From Eledone cirrhosa (lineage: Eukaryota): DNA of 64,000 bases. Location: the NCBI GenBank assembly GCA_964016885.1, contig OZ024742.1, positions 247,814,001 to 247,878,000 of the forward strand, written 5' to 3'. Under the pieces are notes generated by a model that had not been told where the DNA came from, did no database searches, and worked only from the letters and a program-made list of their open reading frames with translations. Within the stretch, counting starts at the first letter, position 1; every line of letters begins with the position of its first letter. Below are positions 15,687-47,745 of this stretch, piece by piece. Made by a program: the position numbers and the translations under genes.

Positions 15687-16118
15687 CTTAAGTTAAATAT
15701 TGATGCAATTCAATTCAAGCACTCAACGTACTTTTTCCACATAGGAGTGACGGAGTATATATCGAATAAGAAAAAGCGAAGTAGTTTCAGATGTTACAGC
15801 ATTATCATTAAAGGACTTTAACATCTGAAACTACTTCTTTTTCTATCTATCTATTTATCTACCTATCTATCTATCTATCTATATATATTAATCTAGCTGT
15901 CGTCTGTTCTACAGTGTGGATGTCATTCACTTCGCACAGAAGTTTTGTTCAAATTTATTGAGGAAATTTTGTGAGTTCAAACTTAATTTTGATACAATTG
16001 TGTAGCTTGACCCTCCGTCTGAACTGTCAGGCGGTGGGTCAGCTCATCTTTACCCCTCCTAGAGGTGAAAAACCTGTTTTAAAAATTTTGTGTAAAAAAT
16101 TCCAATCGTCTAACAGAA

Positions 16119-18020
16119 ATGTTAAACGCAGCGAACGAAAATAGTGGTGGGGGGACAGCGGTAGGAGTTGTAAGCTCGCACGCTTTAGTCCTCCCTTCCT
16201 TCCCAACTAACGTCATAGAGAAGGAAGGAAAAATTAAAATAAAAACGGACGAATCTGCGGAGAAAAAATTAAATGACGTAAACACAAATCTGGACTTGGA
16301 TTCCAACAACGAAAAAAAAAAATTTGAAAAATTGCATGACAATACTAATAACACAAACAAAGACACAACAAACAAAAAAATAACAGTTGAAAATAACACC
16401 ATATCAGAAAACAAAGCAGACGACAAGATTTCATTTGCACAGAAAACAAAGAAATCTTTGACTTATATAGCGGAAAACATTTCAGATGTGGTACGAAGGA
16501 TCACGGACGCCAAACAATACATAAGTGAAGGAGAGAATGGCATTTTATCGGTAAAAATGCCTCAAGAATTCACGAAAGACATTGAAAGCCGAACGGTCAA
16601 GTTTCGGACCATCAACAACAGTACAAAAAAACCTGAACAGCCTTCTCAAGCAGATATCAAAACAGTACTCACAGAAGTACTGAATGAAACAACTTTCATA
16701 AGAAAAGACAGACTGTATGGAAGCCTAGCAATTATCATGAAGAACGAATCGGCGGCAAAAAAATGTGCTTTGTCACCGATTCGTTCGAAAAATTTCACCT
16801 TTTATCCATCTTATATGGGGAAAAGAACTCAGCGCATATGGCTGGATGCAATGATGCCAGATGTGGACTACTGCTGGCTCATAGCTGGCTTCATCGATCC
16901 AGTGAATGACAACGTGATTTCCATTGGGAAAACCACAGGAAATGCGTTCAGTGGAACAGGTATAGAACTGGTAGTACAAATGAAGCCTGAACGCATCGCC
17001 CAAATACCCGACAGAATCCTATTAGAGGACCACGGGTATATAAACATTAGCGTGGAGGGGAGAAGGCCGTCCTGCCATATCTGTGCAGGCAGAGGGCACC
17101 TGAAGGCCGCTTGTCCCCAACTCAACAAAAAGAAAACCCTGCTACCAACACCAGCTCCACCACCACCACCACAACAGATAAACAAACAACAAAACTCAGT
17201 CCCACCCAACCCGTCCCTCAGTAAAACCACAACACCACCACAACACAAACAGTCACAACACATTACCCCAAAACAAAATACAGGCCCACCCAACCTCTCA
17301 CTCAATAAAACAACACAACCACCGCAGACACAACACACAACACAGTCTAACATAGTGACATCCATCTCCCCCACAAAGAAAACCAACACGGAAACATTAC
17401 CAGCAAACATACCTCTTCCCTCCAACACTGAAGATAACCCAACGAATTCGGAGGAAGAAACGGAGTCCTTCAGACAGATTAAAAGGAAAAAAAGAAAACA
17501 TGTGCAAAACACACAAGGACAAACAACCCCCACCCAAATCTCAACACAATCCAACAAAACAGAAAACACCCCTCCAGCAACAAACAAAACCAAACCTGCC
17601 CCTCCCCTCTTCGAAACACTCACACCATCGGAAAAAAAGACATTACACTATACTTACATCAACAGAAACAATAATAAATTAAATGAACTCATATACAATA
17701 ATCCTTCGGTACAAACCGAAGGTGTAAACTTTGTTTCGTCAGAAAACTACCCACATTTAAAACTAATAAAGATCCCAATGAACCTCTACCAAAAACTAAA
17801 AAAGGATTTTAAGGAGGACGTAGGACCACCCTCTGTCAAACCCATAAACCGCGTCCTACTAAAAAGCTTTCCCCCTCCCCTTCCCCTCCCCAACACAACT
17901 CCAAACACACCAACCCCACCACACACTGACGACCCCACACCACCACAAGACACCCCTTCACCCAACACCCCCGACCCCATGGAAGTCGTGCAACCCGAAC
18001 CCCGGGAAGCGGAAAGGTAG
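16119..18020 (+). CDS. LINE ORF1 (gag-like nucleic-acid-binding protein with CCHC zinc knuckle and Pro/Thr/Gln-rich C-terminus)
   Basis: 633 aa ORF with CHICAGRGHLKAAC (C-x2-C-x4-H-x4-C), directly upstream of ORF2. Confidence 0.88.
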   Translation: MLNAANENSGGGTAVGVVSSHALVLPSFPTNVIEKEGKIKIKTDESAEKKLNDVNTNLDLDSNNEKKKFEKLHDNTNNTNKDTTNKKITVENNTISENKADDKISFAQKTKKSLTYIAENISDVVRRITDAKQYISEGENGILSVKMPQEFTKDIESRTVKFRTINNSTKKPEQPSQADIKTVLTEVLNETTFIRKDRLYGSLAIIMKNESAAKKCALSPIRSKNFTFYPSYMGKRTQRIWLDAMMPDVDYCWLIAGFIDPVNDNVISIGKTTGNAFSGTGIELVVQMKPERIAQIPDRILLEDHGYINISVEGRRPSCHICAGRGHLKAACPQLNKKKTLLPTPAPPPPPQQINKQQNSVPPNPSLSKTTTPPQHKQSQHITPKQNTGPPNLSLNKTTQPPQTQHTTQSNIVTSISPTKKTNTETLPANIPLPSNTEDNPTNSEEETESFRQIKRKKRKHVQNTQGQTTPTQISTQSNKTENTPPATNKTKPAPPLFETLTPSEKKTLHYTYINRNNNKLNELIYNNPSVQTEGVNFVSSENYPHLKLIKIPMNLYQKLKKDFKEDVGPPSVKPINRVLLKSFPPPLPLPNTTPNTPTPPHTDDPTPPQDTPSPNTPDPMEVVQPEPREAER

Positions 18021-18053
18021 GTCTCTACACTCTCCTTTGGCTCTGCCGCCCAC

Positions 18054-21000
18054 ATGGATGTGTTAAGAGTAGGATGTTTGAATGCACGTGGCCTGGGCTC
18101 AACTTGGAAGCAAGCAAAGCTTCTAAATGACCTCAGGTCATGTAGTATAAATGTAATGGTTATCTGTGAGACTCGAATCAGCGTCGTGCGGCAGCTGGCC
18201 CCCACCTTCGATGACTTTGAGGTGCATGCATCTCTCTGTCAACCTGGAGGTGGGGGTGGGGTTGTCGTACTGCTGCAAAAACACCTGGGTCTTGCCGTAC
18301 AGGTTGTGCACTCGGACCCGGAGGGTCGTTTGTTGGTGCTAGACGTTGGCAGTAGTGAAAATGCGGCCTTGAGACTGGTCGCCGTCTACTCCCCTTTCGG
18401 AGCTGAACGGCCCGACTTCTTCCAGCGTTTGGAGACTTTTCTGGGAACGTCGCGTTCCCTGCTTCTAGCGGGGGATTGGAATGACATCCTGGATGCACGT
18501 TGGGACTATGCAGGAGCATGTCCTAATAGAGTGGGGTGTAACAGCCTCGAGGGGTTACTCGACCGTTTTAACTTGGTCGATAGATATCGACTAGATTTTC
18601 CAACTGTGCCTACCTGGACTTGGAGAAACCACAGTGGTCAATCTAGATCGTACTTAGATACATTCTTAGTTAGAAGTAAGGATAGGGACATATTAAGCTG
18701 TCCAGAAATGCGCACGGTTGGCTACACGGATCACAAATTAGTGACCTGCGTGGTCAATCTCGAGAAAACACATAGACAGGGTCCCAGTTACTGGAAACTT
18801 AATTTGTCCTTACCGGCAAAAGAGACTTACAGAAACCGGATTAGCAGATTAGTTAAGGAGAGGTTGACGGGTGCAATCGTCAACAACCGATGGTGGGCAT
18901 CTCTCAAAAGAGAGATTAGAACAGAATCAATAAGTTATAGCAAGATGTTAGCTGCCGATAGGAATAGAAACGAGAAAGAATTAACAGGTAAATTAGAAGA
19001 GGCAATCAAGAGCGAAGATGTGGCCAGAGTGCTGGCATCGAGGACGGCCTTGAACCAGTTTTTCGATGCAAAGCACGAAGGCTGCGTCATTCGAAGTAAA
19101 ATACGTGCTCTAAGTAATGAGGGGGCCAAAGCCGTTGGATGGGCCCGCGTGACAGAAGCTAAGAGTGGAAATCGATCCACCATCCGGTCGTTGCAAGACG
19201 AAGATGGACGCGTGATCCGGGAGCCTAAGCAGATGTGCGAGGCCTTTCAAAGGCACTTTGCCCGATTGTTCGGGGGAGGCGAGGGTCCGGGCCGGGGCGT
19301 GGATTTCGGTCCATACCTCGACGGCCTGCCGCGTCTCTCGAGCAAAGAGGCAGAGTCCTGCGAGGGACCAATCTCGGCTGATGAGATCGGAGATGCGCTG
19401 AGCCAATGCAGCAGACGCAAATCTCCAGGTCTCGATGGTATACCTTACGAACTTTATTTAGCAATGCCGGTCTTCTTCTCCGAACTCCTCGAAGCGGTCT
19501 ACTGCAATTGGCAGCAGAACGGGAGAATTCCTTGTTCTGTAGCCAAGGGCGTAGTCACGCTGGTGAGGAAGGACGAGAAAAAGGGGGATAGTATAAATAA
19601 TTTTCGGCCCATAACCCTGCTAAACACAGAGTTAAAGATTTTGGCCAAGGTGTTAGCAAAGAGGTTGGCGCTTGTCGTGGGTGGCCTGGTGGGAGATGCG
19701 CAGACATGTGCTATCCCATCCAGGTCCATTCACGATAACCTCCACCTCATGCGATACATCATAGAGAGGGTTGGCAACAAACCCGGCTTCGGTGGGGCCC
19801 TGATCAACTTGGATCAGTCTAAGGCCTTCGATAGGGTCGACCATGGTTACCTGGATGCGGTGCTAGCGGCGGCTGGGTTCGGTCCTGTTTTCAGAGGCTG
19901 GATAACTGCCCTACATAGCAACCACATCTGTTCTAGGATCAAGGTGAACGGCTACCTTTCGAAGCCGTTCGAAATCACACGATCCATTCGACAGGGGTGC
20001 CCTCTCTCCTCCCTTCTGTACGTATTGACTCTCGAGCCTTTACTGAGGAAGTTGGAGTTGTTGCAGGGTATCCCCCTGGAACCAGGATTGAGCAAAGCGG
20101 TGTCGGCCTACGCCGATGACGTAACAGTAATGGTATCAACCGACTCGGAGATCGAGGCGATCGGTACCTTACTGGAGGAGTACGAAAGGTTGTCAGGAGC
20201 GAAACTGAACCGGGAAAAATCCATCGGGCTGCAACTCGGAACGTGGAGAGGCAAACCGATGCCTCCTGACGGTGTCGTCGGACACTGGACGGAGGGCCCG
20301 GTAAAGTTGCTTGGGGTCTGGTTTGGACCGGACCTCCAGGTGGAAAAGAACTGGAACGAGGTTACGAACAAGGTGTTTGCACTAACCCAGAAATGGGCCA
20401 AGTGTAAGCTGTCCCTAAAAGGCCGGGCGGAGGTGGCGAACATTTACATAGCGTCCGTCACTTACTACCGCCTGACTGTCGTGCCTTGCCCTAAGGAAAC
20501 ACTCACCACCATGGAACGCATGCTCTTCCAATTTCTTTGGAAGAAGCGTCCTCCTATGGTGAGAAGATCCATCTGCTGCCAACAATCTTCGAAAGGAGGG
20601 CTGGGGATGCCGTGGTTGATGATGCGTAGGCACGCATTAAGGCTACGGCACCTACAGGTATTCCTCACTGGTCAACCGGTGTGGGCTCCGTTCGTGAAAC
20701 GAGCCTTTCCGAGACTCGTCTCACTCACCGAGCTACAGTCCTGGGTCAAGCAAAGATCCGGAAAACTGGGAGACTGGCACACTGAGTGTGCTCAGGCGCT
20801 CAGGGCTCTCTGGCAAGCGGGCCGGACCATCGGTGGAGAATCCACCTCATCATTCTATAGAGGGCTGGTGGCTAGCAGGGGCGATGACACCCTTGGAGAG
20901 TCGCTGGACATGGAGGAAGACGAACTGGCCAGCCTGTTCGGTAGGACTTTCGGCCCAGGACCAATGGACAACTTCCAGAAGTCACTGGCCTGGCAGTGCT

Positions 21001-21491
21001 ACCGAGGGGCTCTACCCGTTCGAGAGAGGCTCTACAGACACGGGCGCCCGGGCAGGGATCCCTCAAAAAAGATTTGCCCTAGATGCGTGCGTCACGAAGA
21101 AACCGTAGCGCACGCATTGGTGCAATGTCCGGGCGTGGCTGATCTGTGGGGCTACGCCGAACAACTGCTGTCGCGGGTGGCGCCGATTAAATTGACCGCC
21201 GAGTCCGTGATGACAATCAAACCGCCTCCCCTCTTCACAAAGGAAGCAAAGGCGGTTTTTCTGTGCGTAATAGCCATGTTGAAAGAGGTTGTTTGGTGGA
21301 CACGATTGAAAGGTCTGAGGTCAGGCAACTTCCTCTCTGGCCATAGTCTGGTCTACTTCTTCCGATATCACTTCGGAAGAAGGATAAGAATGGAGAGAGA
21401 GGTGCTTGGCCACAGGCAGTTTTATGAAAGGTGGGTGATAGTGGCGAGAATGGCTCGTGTAAATGGGCCTTCTCTGTATACCATCCTGTAG
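18054..21491 (+). CDS. LINE ORF2 polyprotein: APE endonuclease + reverse transcriptase + C-terminal CCHC zinc finger
   Basis: 1145 aa. APE motifs LNARGL, ICETR, LAGDWN, SYLDTF, TDHKLV. RT motifs KSPGLDG, NFRPITLLN, LDQSKAFDRV, RQGCPLS, AYADDV. KGGLG motif and CPRC..ETVAHALVQC. YWKLN and KGGLG are typical of L1/Tx1. Confidence 0.96.
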   Translation: MDVLRVGCLNARGLGSTWKQAKLLNDLRSCSINVMVICETRISVVRQLAPTFDDFEVHASLCQPGGGGGVVVLLQKHLGLAVQVVHSDPEGRLLVLDVGSSENAALRLVAVYSPFGAERPDFFQRLETFLGTSRSLLLAGDWNDILDARWDYAGACPNRVGCNSLEGLLDRFNLVDRYRLDFPTVPTWTWRNHSGQSRSYLDTFLVRSKDRDILSCPEMRTVGYTDHKLVTCVVNLEKTHRQGPSYWKLNLSLPAKETYRNRISRLVKERLTGAIVNNRWWASLKREIRTESISYSKMLAADRNRNEKELTGKLEEAIKSEDVARVLASRTALNQFFDAKHEGCVIRSKIRALSNEGAKAVGWARVTEAKSGNRSTIRSLQDEDGRVIREPKQMCEAFQRHFARLFGGGEGPGRGVDFGPYLDGLPRLSSKEAESCEGPISADEIGDALSQCSRRKSPGLDGIPYELYLAMPVFFSELLEAVYCNWQQNGRIPCSVAKGVVTLVRKDEKKGDSINNFRPITLLNTELKILAKVLAKRLALVVGGLVGDAQTCAIPSRSIHDNLHLMRYIIERVGNKPGFGGALINLDQSKAFDRVDHGYLDAVLAAAGFGPVFRGWITALHSNHICSRIKVNGYLSKPFEITRSIRQGCPLSSLLYVLTLEPLLRKLELLQGIPLEPGLSKAVSAYADDVTVMVSTDSEIEAIGTLLEEYERLSGAKLNREKSIGLQLGTWRGKPMPPDGVVGHWTEGPVKLLGVWFGPDLQVEKNWNEVTNKVFALTQKWAKCKLSLKGRAEVANIYIASVTYYRLTVVPCPKETLTTMERMLFQFLWKKRPPMVRRSICCQQSSKGGLGMPWLMMRRHALRLRHLQVFLTGQPVWAPFVKRAFPRLVSLTELQSWVKQRSGKLGDWHTECAQALRALWQAGRTIGGESTSSFYRGLVASRGDDTLGESLDMEEDELASLFGRTFGPGPMDNFQKSLAWQCYRGALPVRERLYRHGRPGRDPSKKICPRCVRHEETVAHALVQCPGVADLWGYAEQLLSRVAPIKLTAESVMTIKPPPLFTKEAKAVFLCVIAMLKEVVWWTRLKGLRSGNFLSGHSLVYFFRYHFGRRIRMEREVLGHRQFYERWVIVARMARVNGPSLYTIL

Positions 21492-23284: not shown

Positions 23285-23336
<52 letters not shown>

Positions 23337-23342
<6 letters not shown>

Positions 23343-23720
23343 GTGAGGTTTTTTTTACAAAATGAAAAATAACCGAGGTGTCCTACACGAGTGAAAGTAT
23401 AAAGAAAAAGAGATGAAATCGAAAATGCAACTGAAGTCTTATTTTTTTATTTATTTATTTTTTTTTTAAATATATATATTTATTTGGTTCCTTTACCGGT
23501 TTCGCACTTCTTCTGCTTTTCAAAAGGTGAGTTGAGATGGAGGGTCTGTGGTTTTTCTCACATCTGATGTGAGAATGACCACTGACCGTCCATCTCAACT
23601 CACCTTTTGAAAAGCAGAAGAACTGCGAAACCGGTAAAGGAACCAAATAAATATATATATTTAAAAAAAAAAAAATAAGACTTCAGTTGCATTTTCGATT
23701 TCATCTCTTTTTCTTTATAT
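23337..23720. mobile_element. Palindromic mini-element with two divergent U3-A8 variant hammerheads
   Basis: Arms mirror about 23565. Plus-strand HHR 23603-23640: CCTT-TTGAAAA-GCAG aagaa CTGC-GAAA-CCGG-TA-AAGG. Relatives at 5375-5820 and 45803-46032. Confidence 0.8.
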
Positions 23721-25494: not shown

Positions 25495-26815
25495 ACATGC
25501 ACCTGTTGATTTTCACTTCAATTTATTATAAATTTCTGGTTGGTTGACTCAATAACCGGATGGTTGTTTATAAATTGTCAAATATCTTTCTTCACACATT
25601 GTGTGGCCTCCCCAGTAACTGATTTCTTATTTTGTGTCTCACATTTGTTTTGTCCTACTCCATCTTGTTTTAATGTGTTGTGTGCTGTCTGCTTGGTTTC
25701 CTCATGCGTTACATCCGTGTGTGTGTTTTTATTTATTTATGTGTTTATTTACTTGTCTCTAGTTGTTCTGTCTGTGTGTGTCTAGTTTGATTTATTAGTT
25801 TGGTTGTTGTGTGTCTCTGTATGTCTTCATTTTGTCCACATTCACTAGTTGTGATGTTATTGCTATTCCACTATATGTTTTCTGTTTAATTTTGGTTGGA
25901 GTTCGTTTATGTTTGTCACTTCTGTAATTTGTCGGAGTATTGCGTCTTTTCTGTGAGTGGAAATAATCTTTATCTCTATATTCTCTAATGTGCCCCTATG
26001 CTCCACTTTGAAAGATTGGTGGAGTACTGACGAGTTTTTGCCATCTTGGAGTTCTCGCCAGTGTTCAATTATCCTTTAACTTAAGCTACGGGCTGTCTCA
26101 TCTATGTATGTTGTGTCCTTATTCCTACATATCCCTCAGTATATCTTATGCTATATAATACGTTCCTAGTTTTGCAGTTAGTTTTTGTGCTTAATTCGCA
26201 GACTATGCATTTCCTCTCTGTGCAGGGTTTTTTAAACGGATATGTTCTACTAATTACGGCTTTTATGGGAATACCTGGTCTTTTAACTATCTTAATATTT
26301 AATTTTTGTTTGTCTAGAGCCCTTCTAAATCTGTAAGCTATTTCGCCTCCGAGGGTTGCATTGACGAACATTACACTCTGATATTTATTGTTATCATACC
26401 ACAAGTTGACTCTATTACTATTTTTCTTAATTCTTTCTATTTTATTCCTAAATTTGCTTCTATACGTGGGGCAAGTCCCATTCGAATCATTTTCTACAAT
26501 CTTTCCCCATTCGGTCCTGGCTCCTTTATATACCCTGATCCTGTCTCTCTGATTGTACCCAGAGAACTGCATATGGTGGATGAAATGTTTTAGGTGTCTC
26601 TCTAATTCTTTAGGATTGCACATGCAGGACACATTCTGCATCACTCTTACTAAAGCCGCAATCAATATGTTGACTTTCATGTTATCTGAAACGACTGAGA
26701 TGTGAGTAGATCAGGTACTTGGAGGTCATGGCTGAGCATAATGCAAATGGAGGATTTGTTTTCTATTATGAATAGTTTTTAACCAGAGTTCTGTGTCTAG
26801 TACAGGTAATCTATT
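25495..26815 (-). mobile_element. Penelope-like element 3' fragment (thumb, Cys linker, GIY-YIG), same family as 31703-35305
   Basis: NRLPVLDTELW (26726-27058 ORF). ORF 26102-26680 reads NILIAALVRVMQNVS..HMQFSGY..PCTERKCIVC..CKTRNVLYSI..YVG. Confidence 0.85.
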
Positions 26816-31706: not shown

Positions 31707-34700
31707 TGTTATACTTGGGAAGGGTCATATTTGTGTAATAATATTGCCAGAATTAATAACAGAACACACTCACTGTTTGGTTGGTTTTCTCTTCTGTGTC
31801 TTTTATATCGGTTAATTTAATTTATTCGGTCCTCAATGTTACTATTGTCTGACCAACGGTCAAAAATACAGATATAATATAGACACAAACACATATATAT
31901 AGTCTAACCAAGTTCTTTCGTTGCACATCTGCAACATCGTCAGTGGTGCTATAATGTTTCCTCCTGTTGTATTGTATGCTTACGGCATCTTTATTTAGTC
32001 TGTTTATTTTTTTTTTCTTCTCTGCGCATGCATTTGCGTGTGTGTATAGTGTTTGATGTGTGTTCGTGTTTGGGTGACTGTGTATTGGTTATTGTATTCT
32101 ATCTTAGTTTACTAGTGTGTGTTTATATGTGTTTGTTGTTATTGTGCTTGTGTATGCATTTATTTATTTAGTTATACTTCTCTTAGGTCAGTATTGTTTG
32201 TTTGGGTGTTATTCCATTCATTTTTTATGTTTAGCCTTGGACTTCTAAGTTCTATTCCGCTGGCCTCTCTGATTTCTCTATCTGCTGAGTCATTTCTATG
32301 TTTAGATATTATTCTAATTTCTATGTTGTCTATGTTACGGTCGTGTTGTTGTCTGGCATGTTCGTATAGTACTGACCGTTTTTTCGTCCTTTTAGTTCCC
32401 CCATGTGTTGGTCTATCCTTTGACCTATGCTACGAGCTGTCTCCCCTATGTATGTTGTTGTCATGTTATGCTATAGACTACGTTTCTAGCTTTACAGTTT
32501 ATCCGGGGGTTTACTTCACATATAATACATTTACTATTAGTACAGTGGATTTTCTTAAAAGGGTAGGTTTTGCTGATCAGGGATTTTATGGTGGTTCCTG
32601 GCTTTTATTCCACCTTAATCTTAAAGTGGGTCTTTCTCAGGGCCTTTCTGCACTGGTTAGCTAATTTCCCTCCAGGGGTAGCGTCCACAAACACGACACT
32701 CTAGTATCTCTGGTTGTCGTACCATGAGGTGGCTTTCCCTATCTTATGTCTAGTCCTATCTAAGCTATTCCATGATTTGCTCCTGTATAATGGGCAAATT
32801 TCTTTCATGTCCAGTTCTATGAGGGTCTTATACTTCTCCATGGTTCCTTCGTAGACTCTGATTCTGTCTCTTTGGTTGTAGCCAGAGAACTGCATGCGGT
32901 TGATGAAGTGTTGGATGTGTCTTTCCATTTATGTTGGGTCGCACTTCCGGGACACGTTCTTCATCACTCGCACCAAATCTGCGATCAGAATATTAAACTT
33001 AGCACTACTGGACATTGCTGAGTTTTTGAGTATCATGTATTTGGAGGCCATGAGTTTAGCGTAGTGTGAGTGGAGAATTTGGGCTCTCTAGTCTATAGTG
33101 TTAATCCAGAGTTCCGTGTCAAATACAGGTAGTCTATTGATAGGGTGTTTGGAAGGGTAGTCGATAGTTACAGTTATACTCTGGTGTATGGAATTAGCTA
33201 TCTGCTGGATGCTTTCCATTGTGCTACGTTCTAAATCAAACTTGTTAGTACTATCTTGTGGGGATCTCCTTATTACTATATTGATGTCGTCTACGTAACG
33301 AGAGTACATGATGAGGTCTATGGAGCTCTCATTAAGGAGATCTTTGAGTCTCCTTTCCCACCATACGATAAAAAGGTTGTCAACGTCACCTGCTATGCTG
33401 ACGCCAATGGCTGCTCCCTCATTTTGGGTGTAGATCTCGTTGAATTTGAATATGTGGCCCTTTAGGGTAGTTTTGATACTAGCCCCTATTGCATGTGCGA
33501 CCATTTTTCTTACCTGATCATTGTTTTTGGGGGTCCGTATAGCTTTGGTCCACCCTATCCACCCTCCCATGGGAGTCTTTTTTGCCATTGAGGTTATGGT
33601 GGGGTGGGGGTCTACCTTTTATGGGTCTACTGGGGCAGAAACGTCTAAGGTCATGGCTGTCTAGGTAGTCAGTGTCATAGGTAAGTCTAAGTAGGAAGCC
33701 CAGTTCGTCTGTGTCGACGTCGCAGAACTCTACCTCACTCACAATGATCATCTCCACACATTTTTCCACAGCAAAATCAATGTTAATGGATGGGTACAGT
33801 GATACCACACCCATACTGCCTATTATGCAGTAGGATAGGTTTTTGTTTTTGTTGCACTTACTGATTCTGCTGAGGAGGTCCTCTGTACTGTCAAATACAT
33901 CTGGGGACATCTTGATTATGGGGCGTATAACCATTGAGAGGAAGTAGGAGATCCTGTAGTTGCTAGCTATATTTGCTCCGCATACAGGTCTTGTTGGTGG
34001 TCCTGTTGTCGGGTCGTCGACTGTCTTATGGTCTTTGCGGAGCCCATACAAGGGTGATATACCATTGTTAGACGCCTGGAAGTTGTTGGCAGTGCGTCTG
34101 CTTGGTTTACGATGTCAGTCCACATCATCATGTGAGCGTTGAGGATTTTCTCTCTCTCATTATGTATTTGCTGTGCAATTTCGCTCGTGCTGGTGATGTG
34201 GGGTTGCATAGCCTTGATGTAGTTCGGCATGCTGTCTATTGACATCCTACCAGACTTATCCGTGGGTAGACATACTACGTCACCATCCCTTGTGCGCTGC
34301 TTGAGGCTAACCAAGCCTTCTACAGGTTTCCTCCCAAGTTGTTGGACCGATGGTCTGCTTTGTCTCTTAGTATACCGGTCTACTATTTGCCTAATCTTAT
34401 TTCTAGCTATGGTGAACTGTGCCTCTGTCTCGTCATCTATTTGTTGTGGTATACAAACCCTTTTATTAAAGGGTAACCTCGTAGGATAGATATTACCCAT
34501 CTTATATGTTTTGTCAGCTGGATTGAAGAATAGTTTCTCTAAGAGGTTGTCATTATATCTATCGTCATAGTTGTGTGTGTTGCTATTATTGTTATCATGG
34601 TGGTTGTTGTTGTTCCTATCATTAACATTATTATTATTGTTATGATTGCTAGATGTATTGTTGTTACTGTTATTTCTACCATTGTGGTTGTTACTTTTAT

Positions 34701-45372: not shown

Positions 45373-45761
45373 AAAAAAAGGAAAATAATGACTCCACATG
45401 TAGTGTTAAAAAAAATATGATTCAATGTTATAATATAATATTATAATATTATGAGTTGGTAGATCCAGTAAGTTCTTTGTTAACTTCGGTGGGAAGAATT
45501 TTAGAGATTCCTGGTTAACTTGGGTTGGAGAACTTTCTCGCATGCGCATGCCTGTGGCGATTGTCTGATCTCAGTTTGACAATCGGCACAGACAGATGAA
45601 TGCGAGAAAGTTCTCCAACCCAAGTTAACCAGAAATCTCTAAAATTCTTGCCACCGAAGTTAATAAAGAGCTTACTGGATTTACCAACACATAATATTAT
45701 AATATTATATTAAATCATAAATTTTTTAACACTACAAGTGAAGTCATTCTTTTCCTTTTTT
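45373..45761. repeat. Long imperfect palindrome (~190-bp arms) between (TA)n tracts
   Basis: GGTTAACTTGGGTTGGAGAACTTTCTCGCAT / ATGCGAGAAAGTTCTCCAACCCAAGTTAACC and further pairs; centre ~45570. Confidence 0.85.
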
Positions 45762-45806: not shown

Positions 45807-46032
45807 AAAGTAAATTGAAAATGCAACAGGAGTCTTTTAAGATGCGAAACAAACAACAACAGAAACACAAACCCTACTTCCCAATTCTACTTTTTTGAAA
45901 ATCATAAGAACTGTGAAACCGGTAAAGGAAATAAATAAATATTCTTAAAATGCTCCAGTTACATTTTCAATTTCTTTTTCTTATACTTTCACCTTTGTAG
46001 GACATCTCATAAAAAAAACCCTCATTTTCTCA
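45803..46032. mobile_element. Third copy of the 23337 family (reverse orientation)
   Basis: TTGAAAA..CTGTGAAACCGGTAAAGG at 45895-45928. Terminus CTTTCACC..GTAGGACA matches the reverse complement of 23378-23400. Confidence 0.7.
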
Positions 46033-46745: not shown

Positions 46746-46778
<33 letters not shown>

Positions 46779-46787
46779 GTGAGCATA

Positions 46788-46855
46788 CGGCACTTACTTA
46801 AATGTAAGTATGTATGTATACGTACATACATATATGTATACAGACGTACAGTAGC

Positions 46856-46924
<69 letters not shown>

Positions 46925-47045
46925 CAGGCACACATATATATATGTACGTATCAGTTTAGCGAATATTTATTATAACATTCGCTTTGTTCGAATGTTATAA
47001 TAAATATTCGCTAAACTGATACGTACATATATATATGTGTGCCTG

Positions 47046-47084
<39 letters not shown>

Positions 47085-47516
47085 GCTACTGTACGTCTGT
47101 ACACATATATGTATGTACGTATACATACATACTTACATTTAAGTAAGTGACGTACTAAGAGTGAGGAATGAAATTTCGTTTCATTCTATTCCAACTTACC
47201 GTTTCCGGTGCGCCTGGCCGACTGAACTCACTCGATATGCAAATTAGGCTGCTCAGCCGTTAATTTTCATAAGGAAAGTATATACTTTCGAACGTTCAAC
47301 CATCTTGCAGAAGGGTATACGGTGCTGACGATAGCTAACAAGCTTGAAACTAGTACATCGTTCCTGTGTCAGTGTTGAACTAAAAGGTGACGTGGTTGCC
47401 TTAACACCGTACGGCATAAATCAGGCTGTCCGTTTGTTTACAAACGAACAAAGCGAATGTTATAATAAATATTCGCTAAACTGATACGTACATACATATA
47501 TGTGTGCCTGTATGTG

Positions 47517-47583
<67 letters not shown>

Positions 47584-47693
47584 GCTACTGTACGACTGTA
47601 TACATATATGTATGTACGTATACATACATACTTACATTTAAGTAAGTGCCGCACTAAGAGTGAGAAATGAAGTTTCGTTTCATTCTATTCCAA

Positions 47694-47697
<4 letters not shown>
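46788..47697 (+). repeat. ~466-bp HHR monomer as a 1.5-mer, preceded by an inverted partial copy
   Basis: CGAATGTTATAATAAATATTCGC at 46989 and 47455. 46788-46981 is the inverted copy of 46989-47150. Confidence 0.85.
47319..47361 (+). ncRNA. Minimal type I hammerhead ribozyme with palindromic stem III
   Basis: ACGGTG-CTGACGA-TAGC taacaa GCTT-GAAA-CTAG-TA-CATCGT. Confidence 0.85.

Positions 47698-47745
<48 letters not shown>

Follow-up and report, generated by a model that had tools for sequence, protein, structure and literature searches.

Metazoan non-LTR retrozymes have been described as tandem repeats without coding capacity, whose units measure a few hundred bp, are low in GC and each contain a type I hammerhead ribozyme (PMC7229834; bioRxiv 10.64898/2026.07.22.740005), features that, on the available parts of those texts, the element reported here shares. 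A hammerhead whose helix III is a single base pair closed by a palindromic loop is, in the accessible text of Cervera and de la Pena (2014), the canonical metazoan type I form, which works as a dimer, and the term "minimal" (min-HHR) is applied to hammerheads without helix III and loop 3, with a helix II of 7-8 bp and a helix I of 4-5 bp (PMC4209133). For the Penelope-like elements (PLEs), a Penelope protein studied in vitro used two internal start sites, gave rise to a "tail" and extended both strands (Frangieh et al. 2024, PMC11167929). Finally, shrimp Penelope elements that carry microsatellites have already been published, according to the part of that study available (PMC7878876), and the lengthening of repeats by slippage after insertion has been reviewed for Alu and L1, again in the part available (PMC3812793).

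The locus described here lies in the window, that is, the 64,000-nucleotide stretch of Eledone cirrhosa DNA that was analyzed, and consists of an inverted arm, one full unit of 465 bp, a second unit cut short at 244 bp and then a TA repeat. This is the architecture of one and a half units behind an inverted leader that had been proposed from the sequence, and it was borne out by self-alignment of the locus. The full monomer occupies 46989-47453 on the plus strand and is followed directly by the partial second unit (47454-47697, plus strand), such that 46989-47198 matches 47454-47697 as a direct repeat. The period is 465 bp, one less than the approximate 466 bp first given for what is indeed a repeat unit, or 499 bp if measured across the longer second TA tract. 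The partial unit stops at the long 3' end of the family, and the short 3' end of other copies maps within it, to approximately 47632-47640. The inverted arm (46788-46990, minus strand, 203 bp) is a second, 5'-truncated copy of the 3' part of the element; it is the reverse complement of 47445-47651 at 96.6% identity, meets the direct arm via a 2-nt CG overlap and ends 73 nt past its tract, slightly outside the usual range of short ends. TA repeats flank the insertion on the left (46746-46778, separated from the inverted arm by 9 bp) and on the right (47696-47742, likely the pre-existing target). Each of the three copies contains an internal TA tract, and these differ in length, as had been noticed: 62 bp, all pure, in the inverted arm (46859-46920, minus strand), 30 bp in the full unit (47052-47081, plus strand), where the tract is the tip of a long predicted hairpin, and 64 bp in the partial unit (47517-47580, plus strand) if one interruption is allowed, of which 60 bp (47521-47580) are pure. 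A single predicted type I hammerhead is present (47319-47361, plus strand; core at 47325, predicted cut after 47355), as the inverted arm and the partial unit both stop short of the ribozyme. Since there is only one ribozyme, this locus could not, by prediction, release unit-length RNA alone.

The unit is not unique to this locus, an outcome that would have undone the original prediction. A 26-mer from the ribozyme has 15,025 exact matches in the genome, a minimum for the family that includes several subfamilies, and the reversed control has none. A genome search with the unique part of the monomer gave 2,508 first-look candidates, the best 40 of which are 96-100% identical, and an independent public run, of a kind that was not recorded, yielded 4,776 contigs with the same part. 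On the strength of the ribozyme matches, the empty control and the contigs of the independent run, assembly artifact or chance was rejected as the source of the repeat. Copies are dispersed through the genome, some as single units, some in short tandems or mirror insertions, and some in long arrays (a many-unit example lies at 19.36-19.38 Mb of contig C28), with monomers joined head to tail without coding sequence. As in non-LTR retrozymes, the element has no open reading frame of 150 aa or more and no LTR-type flanks, and no reverse transcriptase (RT) plus GIY-YIG frame of the kind that marks an autonomous Penelope-like element was found in or linked to the unit. From these properties, the window element is likely an insertion of a young, high-copy, non-coding hammerhead repeat of the non-LTR retrozyme type. 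A fourth family, which is tract-less, aligns along the whole monomer (score 244, versus 56 +/- 14 for shuffles), and its copies are 97-98% identical, that is, as young as the long-tract subfamily to which the window element belongs. This sister family, also with a 465-bp unit, is seen at locus L075 (7488-8987), where its tail is 69 nt long, equal to that of the Neptune-type element discussed below. A further hammerhead tandem family, seen at locus L078 (6942-7607), has a 310-bp unit in which the palindrome is CGCG; it shares the helix II loop but is without the U6-like box treated below.

The predicted hammerhead has a helix I of 6 bp, a helix II of 3 bp over a U.U with the six-base loop UAACAA, and a helix III of 1 bp around a palindromic CUAG (CTAG at 47350-47353). 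An Rfam search gave no hammerhead match at gathering scores and only low-complexity microRNA matches below them, and helix III is absent from the free minimum-energy fold; the ribozyme call therefore rests on the core motif and on covariation. Nine of the 13 pairs change on both sides, with a score of 0.64 that was reached by none of 500 shuffles and compares with at most 0.11 in slid controls, the shuffle result being no probability given that the set comprises eight hand-picked, related sequences from four families. Each unit thereby shows what is expected of a retrozyme, a type I hammerhead with a conserved core and covarying helices. The position first assigned to the hammerhead stands, while its label as "minimal" does not: a helix I of 6 bp, a helix II of four positions and a retained helix III of 1 bp with its 4-nt palindromic loop led us to reject that class, and the ribozyme is, by its predicted structure, of the satellite-2-like canonical type, with self-cleavage predicted. 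The reading of the CTAG stem III as a form that acts in dimers fared better. The helix III loop is CTAG, CGCG or CCGG depending on the family, three different palindromes over five families in a scan that retained palindromic loops only, as the dimer model predicts. By computed energies, closing helix III within a monomer costs 5.4 kcal/mol, and pairing the palindromes of two copies yields -6.8. As a circle, the 465-bp monomer is predicted to be highly self-paired (z of -7.7 against 40 shuffles).

The manner in which copies end is informative about how they were made. The 3' ends of terminal copies form two clusters, at 50-64 nt (short) and 100-118 nt (long) past the tract. In a position-ordered sample (40 loci from the start of the list for contig C1, two listed sites that had already been sampled being skipped), 60 of 67 ends had a TA run of at least 10 nt within 40 nt, compared to 14% of random flank windows, and all 23 outward-facing (mirror) pairs, a few of which may be nested copies, joined one short to one long end. 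Among best-hit loci, the same rule was followed by 14 of 15 pairs in the long-tract subfamily, the sole exception being the window pair itself (73/117), by 7/7, 4/5 and 8/8 pairs in sister subfamilies, and by all five pairs of a Neptune-type element from the same genome. The family of the latter has intact 775-aa frames with RT and GIY-YIG, a linker that fits the Neptune motif as quoted by Craig et al. (PMC8557442, available in part), a U3-A8 hammerhead of its own with CCGG, and 17/17 ends in TA; internal TA also occurs in its 3' UTR, with 30 tracts of 10-125 nt in 29 loci. The tail between the two 3' ends is 57 nt in the long-tract subfamily versus 69 in the Neptune family. A complete, young Neptune-type unit of 4.7 kb, from a family with many intact 775-aa frames, is found at locus L073 (2358-7046), where an internal TA follows the stop by approximately 210 bp and the tail is 69 nt long.

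A partial tandem with an inverted arm and two 3' ends separated by a tail is the form that Penelope-mobilized copies take, and it is the form found here. At the loci where target-site duplications (>4 bp) were sought, the insertion flanks are TA repeats, and such duplications are unreadable for that reason. The tandem-plus-inverted form, the paired ends and the TA targets indicate that the element has likely been copied into TA microsatellites by a Penelope-like (Neptune-type) enzyme, which, by analogy, would copy the monomer RNA onto both sides of a cut. The proposal that PLEs mobilize animal retrozymes gains sequence-level support from this, because the retrozyme has the same targets, the same two ends and the same mirror-arm rule as an intact element of the same genome.

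The same architecture also lends itself to another reading, in which the unit would be a 3' end (pseudo-LTR) left behind by an autonomous Penelope element, and the copies truncated versions of that element rather than members of an independently spreading retrozyme. Truncated PLE copies do have this form (PMC8557442), and of the 57 retrozyme families reported for Xenopus, 24 could be matched to known elements, almost all of these being PLE ends (bioRxiv 10.64898/2026.07.22.740005), both sources being available in part. We nevertheless regard this reading as improbable, in view of units that are joined head to tail without coding sequence and of the lack of any copy linked to an open reading frame in the 40 position-ordered loci, in 30 Neptune loci and in 30 GIY-YIG loci, with the top candidates scored. 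At none of the 40 sampled loci did a PLE frame continue into the monomer as though this were its 3' UTR; eight had nearby PLE matches, of which three were read through, and for the other five the judgment was made from strand and position. Nor did the monomer share sequence with the Neptune unit or with 30 GIY-YIG loci, separate insertions aside, as would be expected if its 3' end matched that of an autonomous partner; this comparison covered part of the several coexisting PLE families. A second PLE family, with no Pfam match, is presumably Hydra-like, judging from its motifs; it was dropped as a partner once its 3' end had been read and found to share no DNA with the monomer.

Several other elements were observed in the window. 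At 23330-23719, the Neptune-type family is represented by its 3' end (91-92% identity), present as a mirror insertion that contains a U3-A8 hammerhead at 23482-23535 on the minus strand. At 45863-46008, approximately 780 bp to the left of the retrozyme, lies the 3' end of another Neptune-type element, related but older (74% identity), which ends in TA. An inverted repeat at 45500-45644, with arms of approximately 45 bp, adjoins TA repeats and is possibly the junction of another mirror insertion. Two long plus-strand frames of 645 and 1156 aa span 16083-21488, and the 1156-aa frame, with endonuclease, RT and zf-RVT domains, marks an apparently intact LINE. The minus-strand frames at 33091-34114 and 26105-26710, with no significant Pfam match for the two that were searched, resemble fragments of Penelope-type RTs in their motifs.

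That the element transports a microsatellite, as the original prediction held, was borne out in the anchored copies. In a set of 97 such copies after de-duplication, the two flanks were joined over no more than 400 bp in 85, and a pure TA run of 10 nt or longer was present in 84 of those; the remaining 12 comprised one that had lost the tract by a larger deletion and 11 in which the tract was interrupted or extended beyond the fetched DNA or the second anchor was missed. Since 84 of 85 direct junctions retain the run, the internal TA is real cargo, although its length is specific to the subfamily: the median is 39 bp (10-268, n=66 of 75 monomers) in the long-tract subfamily and 12 bp in both sister subfamilies (8-22, n=38 of 40, and 10-22, n=30 of 33), and the fourth family has a fixed 9-nt non-repeat in place of the tract in 40 of 41 copies. 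The internal TA is thus a constant part of the monomer, as had been proposed for checking, within the long-tract subfamily but not in the wider family. The position-ordered sample was bimodal as well, with 45 long, 24 short, 2 interrupted and 8 unscored tracts among 79. In a tree of 54 sampled monomers, with moderate support, an unsettled bootstrap and a root on a long branch, long- and short-tract clades stand apart, with the tract-less family outside.

The TA site is the tip of a long predicted hairpin in all three families that were folded, and extra TA at this tip would, in the folding model, only lengthen the stem. From these comparisons, the tract likely grew from a short repeat at the hairpin tip; given the tree root and bootstrap, shrinkage from a long-tract ancestor may instead have occurred. 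Interrupted tracts hardly differ, whether compared at one locus or across loci (38 nt in 9 of 10 units from two loci), and pure tracts vary from 36 to 90 within one locus, in lengths taken from one assembly, a pattern that fits faithful copying of the tract and subsequent slippage. The thousands of copies represent a natural series for a dinucleotide repeat crossing the slippage threshold at one fixed site.

Because the tract-less family is equally young and also ends in TA (19 of 20 ends), the tract is, on this comparison, dispensable for mobility. The same family weighs heavily against a functional role on the model of the telomeric repeats of endonuclease-less Penelope elements, in which pairing of the internal TA with the nicked TA target would prime reverse transcription. 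In favor of such a role, TA repeats are self-complementary and insertion is into TA, and repeat-assisted attachment has been described for Athena and Coprina in the available part of Craig et al. (PMC8557442). However, the two clusters of 3' ends map downstream of the tract, outside it (50-64 and 100-118 nt), and the Penelope protein that has been studied starts at RNA sites without homology to the target (PMC11167929), such that priming by the tract appears very unlikely.

The tract does serve as a landing site for other elements. At locus L081, a 5.6-kb Neptune copy splits a monomer in two and is bordered by TA on either side, an RTE-type LINE occupies the same tract site at L031, and several shorter elements are also inserted into internal tracts. 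Insertions were seen in the tracts of 6 of 72 long-subfamily monomers versus 0 of 68 short-subfamily monomers, a comparison not treated as fair, since the long set had larger, chosen flanks and five short copies went unscored; the position-ordered sample gave 2 interrupted versus 45 intact among long tracts and 0 versus 24 among short ones, with 8 unscored. The copy at locus L007 adjoins TA at neither end, and another element is inserted in its internal tract. A short palindromic element recurs in TA repeats, including the internal tract of this retrozyme, at L007 (1904-2093) and also at L020, L159 and L201.

The amount of TA that is delivered in this manner can be estimated from a long-tract marker that has 9,773 exact arm matches. 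Of the marker-bearing uninterrupted arms, 26 of 27 have a tract of at least 20 nt, with a mean of 48, so that the cargo comes to approximately 0.47 Mb (9,773 x 48 nt), as a lower bound, in a 3.0-Gb genome. With TA making up 2.5-8.4% of local DNA in non-random samples, this is approximately 0.2-0.6% of TA bases. The suggestion that such retroelements seed (TA)n as well as target it is therefore only partly upheld: the tract moves with the element and takes insertions, but most copies have inserted into pre-existing TA (60 of 67 ends, against the 14% background), and seeding is likely minor, contributing well under 1% of the TA DNA of the genome. That the element is a major source of the genome's TA microsatellites, as its at least 9,773 marker-bearing arms with tracts mostly of 20 nt or more and the TA-free site of L007 might be taken to imply, is extremely unlikely given the small share of TA bases and the 60 of 67 ends already in TA. 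The element leaves the high TA content of the genome unexplained.

How retrozyme repeats are transcribed becomes a directly testable question through a candidate promoter in the unit. The octamer ATGCAAAT, which had been placed at approximately 47237 and does start there, is part of a box at 47236-47247 (plus strand), with a TATA-like box at 47278-47285 (plus strand), 41 bp after the octamer. It is exact in 43/53, 38/47 and 26/36 copies of three families. The top-scoring host genes for U6, U6atac and RNase MRP have the same 12-nt box at -76 to -78, with a TATA at -31, and the attention originally drawn to the octamer was likely warranted given this match. The box is present in 4 of 19 distinct U6, 1 of 8 U6atac and 1 of 1 MRP upstream regions, the U6 and U6atac regions without it having been set aside as probable pseudogenes. 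With a matrix built from five chosen host genes, the monomer scores 27.3 bits, as high as none of 300 shuffles, and is the only such site in the window. The combination of box and TATA thereby matches host U6-class genes and recurs in two sister families, but the box-TATA spacing is 40-41 bp versus 45-47 bp in host genes. Further, two sister families have T5-T6 runs ahead of their 3' ends, a poor fit to Pol III, and the box also sits in a predicted RNA stem. From the TATA, a start near 47309-47314, just before the ribozyme, is predicted. Overall, we give about even chances to the box and TATA forming a working promoter. A U2-type promoter was dropped, the exact octamer being found in 0 of 8 distinct U2 upstream regions. 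Many U6 and U6atac copies without the upstream box were observed (L245-L263), several adjoining TA repeats, which suggests that these are retrocopies placed in TA targets.

The life cycle that we propose begins with transcription of arrays, probably from the U6-like box in each unit. Paired ribozymes would then cut the multimers to unit-length RNA, which may circularize. A Neptune-type protein would nick both strands of a TA repeat, and reverse transcription would begin at two internal RNA sites, with the short site used on one side of the cut and the long site on the opposite side, the two cDNAs joining at their 5' ends and thereby producing the mirror arms. The tract would be copied faithfully and would change in length later, by DNA slippage, most where it is uninterrupted; it would be a tolerated passenger that doubles as a new landing site. 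The observed basis is the copy number, the tandem and mirror form, the two fixed 3' ends, the TA targets, the covariation of the ribozyme, the tract lengths of the subfamilies and the elements inside the tract. We hold with considerable confidence the account as a whole, namely, a young retrozyme, Penelope-like copying into TA and an internal tract that grew at a hairpin tip. A bolder version, which we put forward tentatively and consider less probable than not holding, is a self-reinforcing parasite with a U6-type promoter and Neptune copying that has evolved its own target repeat inside itself, the living subfamilies with none, short and long tracts being stages in the birth of a microsatellite. 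If this were true, each insertion would lay landing sites for the element itself and for other TA-targeting elements.

Compared with described systems, the element is closest to the metazoan non-LTR retrozymes, with which it also shares a predicted self-paired circle and coexistence with PLEs (PMC7229834, in the available part). As far as their available descriptions go, axolotl HHR_Amex1 has the same 1-bp helix III and palindromic tetraloop, and HHR_Amex2 the same U.U at the base of helix II. In the parts of the sources available, the 465-bp unit exceeds the 150-450 bp of Cervera and de la Pena 2020 (PMC7229834) but lies within the range of 51-972 bp given by Li, Clavereau and Pollet (bioRxiv 10.64898/2026.07.22.740005). 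An "active" retrozyme in that preprint, by the part available, has two consecutive units, and the window locus, with its one ribozyme, falls short of this. Retrozymes are transcribed, self-cleaved and found as circular RNA, and for the present element a stable circle is predicted. The variable internal TA, the TA targeting, the short and long mirror arms and the U6-like box are not described for retrozymes in the available parts of those texts. The literature searched, mostly freely accessible main texts, contained no retrozyme described as having either an internal TA tract or a U6-type promoter. PMC3124438 and PMC13282606, as far as available, had nothing to add on ribozymes.

With Neptune-type PLEs and pseudo-LTRs, the element shares a partial tandem plus an inverted 5'-truncated copy and microsatellite targeting (PMC8557442, PMC11167929, PMC4209133), as well as an optional tail between two 3' ends and a hammerhead with a palindromic helix III, on the parts of those sources available. 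PLEs differ in having an open reading frame, absent here, and in a reported tail of 30-40 nt, versus 56-69 nt here; no sequence homology to the monomer was found in the Neptune-type element examined. Newt satellite 2, in the available part of its description, is also a tandem hammerhead repeat with an internal snRNA-like promoter (PMC2220036), a feature for which the present element has a candidate, but that promoter is described there as Pol II, while the box here matches host U6, U6atac and MRP, not U2. With shrimp Penelope SSRs (PMC7878876) and Alu/L1 proto-microsatellites (PMC3812793), as the accessible texts present them, the element shares a repeat that moves with it and lengthens after insertion, and insertion into existing microsatellites. 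What sets the present element apart is that its living subfamilies differ at one homologous hairpin tip, from no tract through a short to a long one, and that it carries the very repeat it targets.
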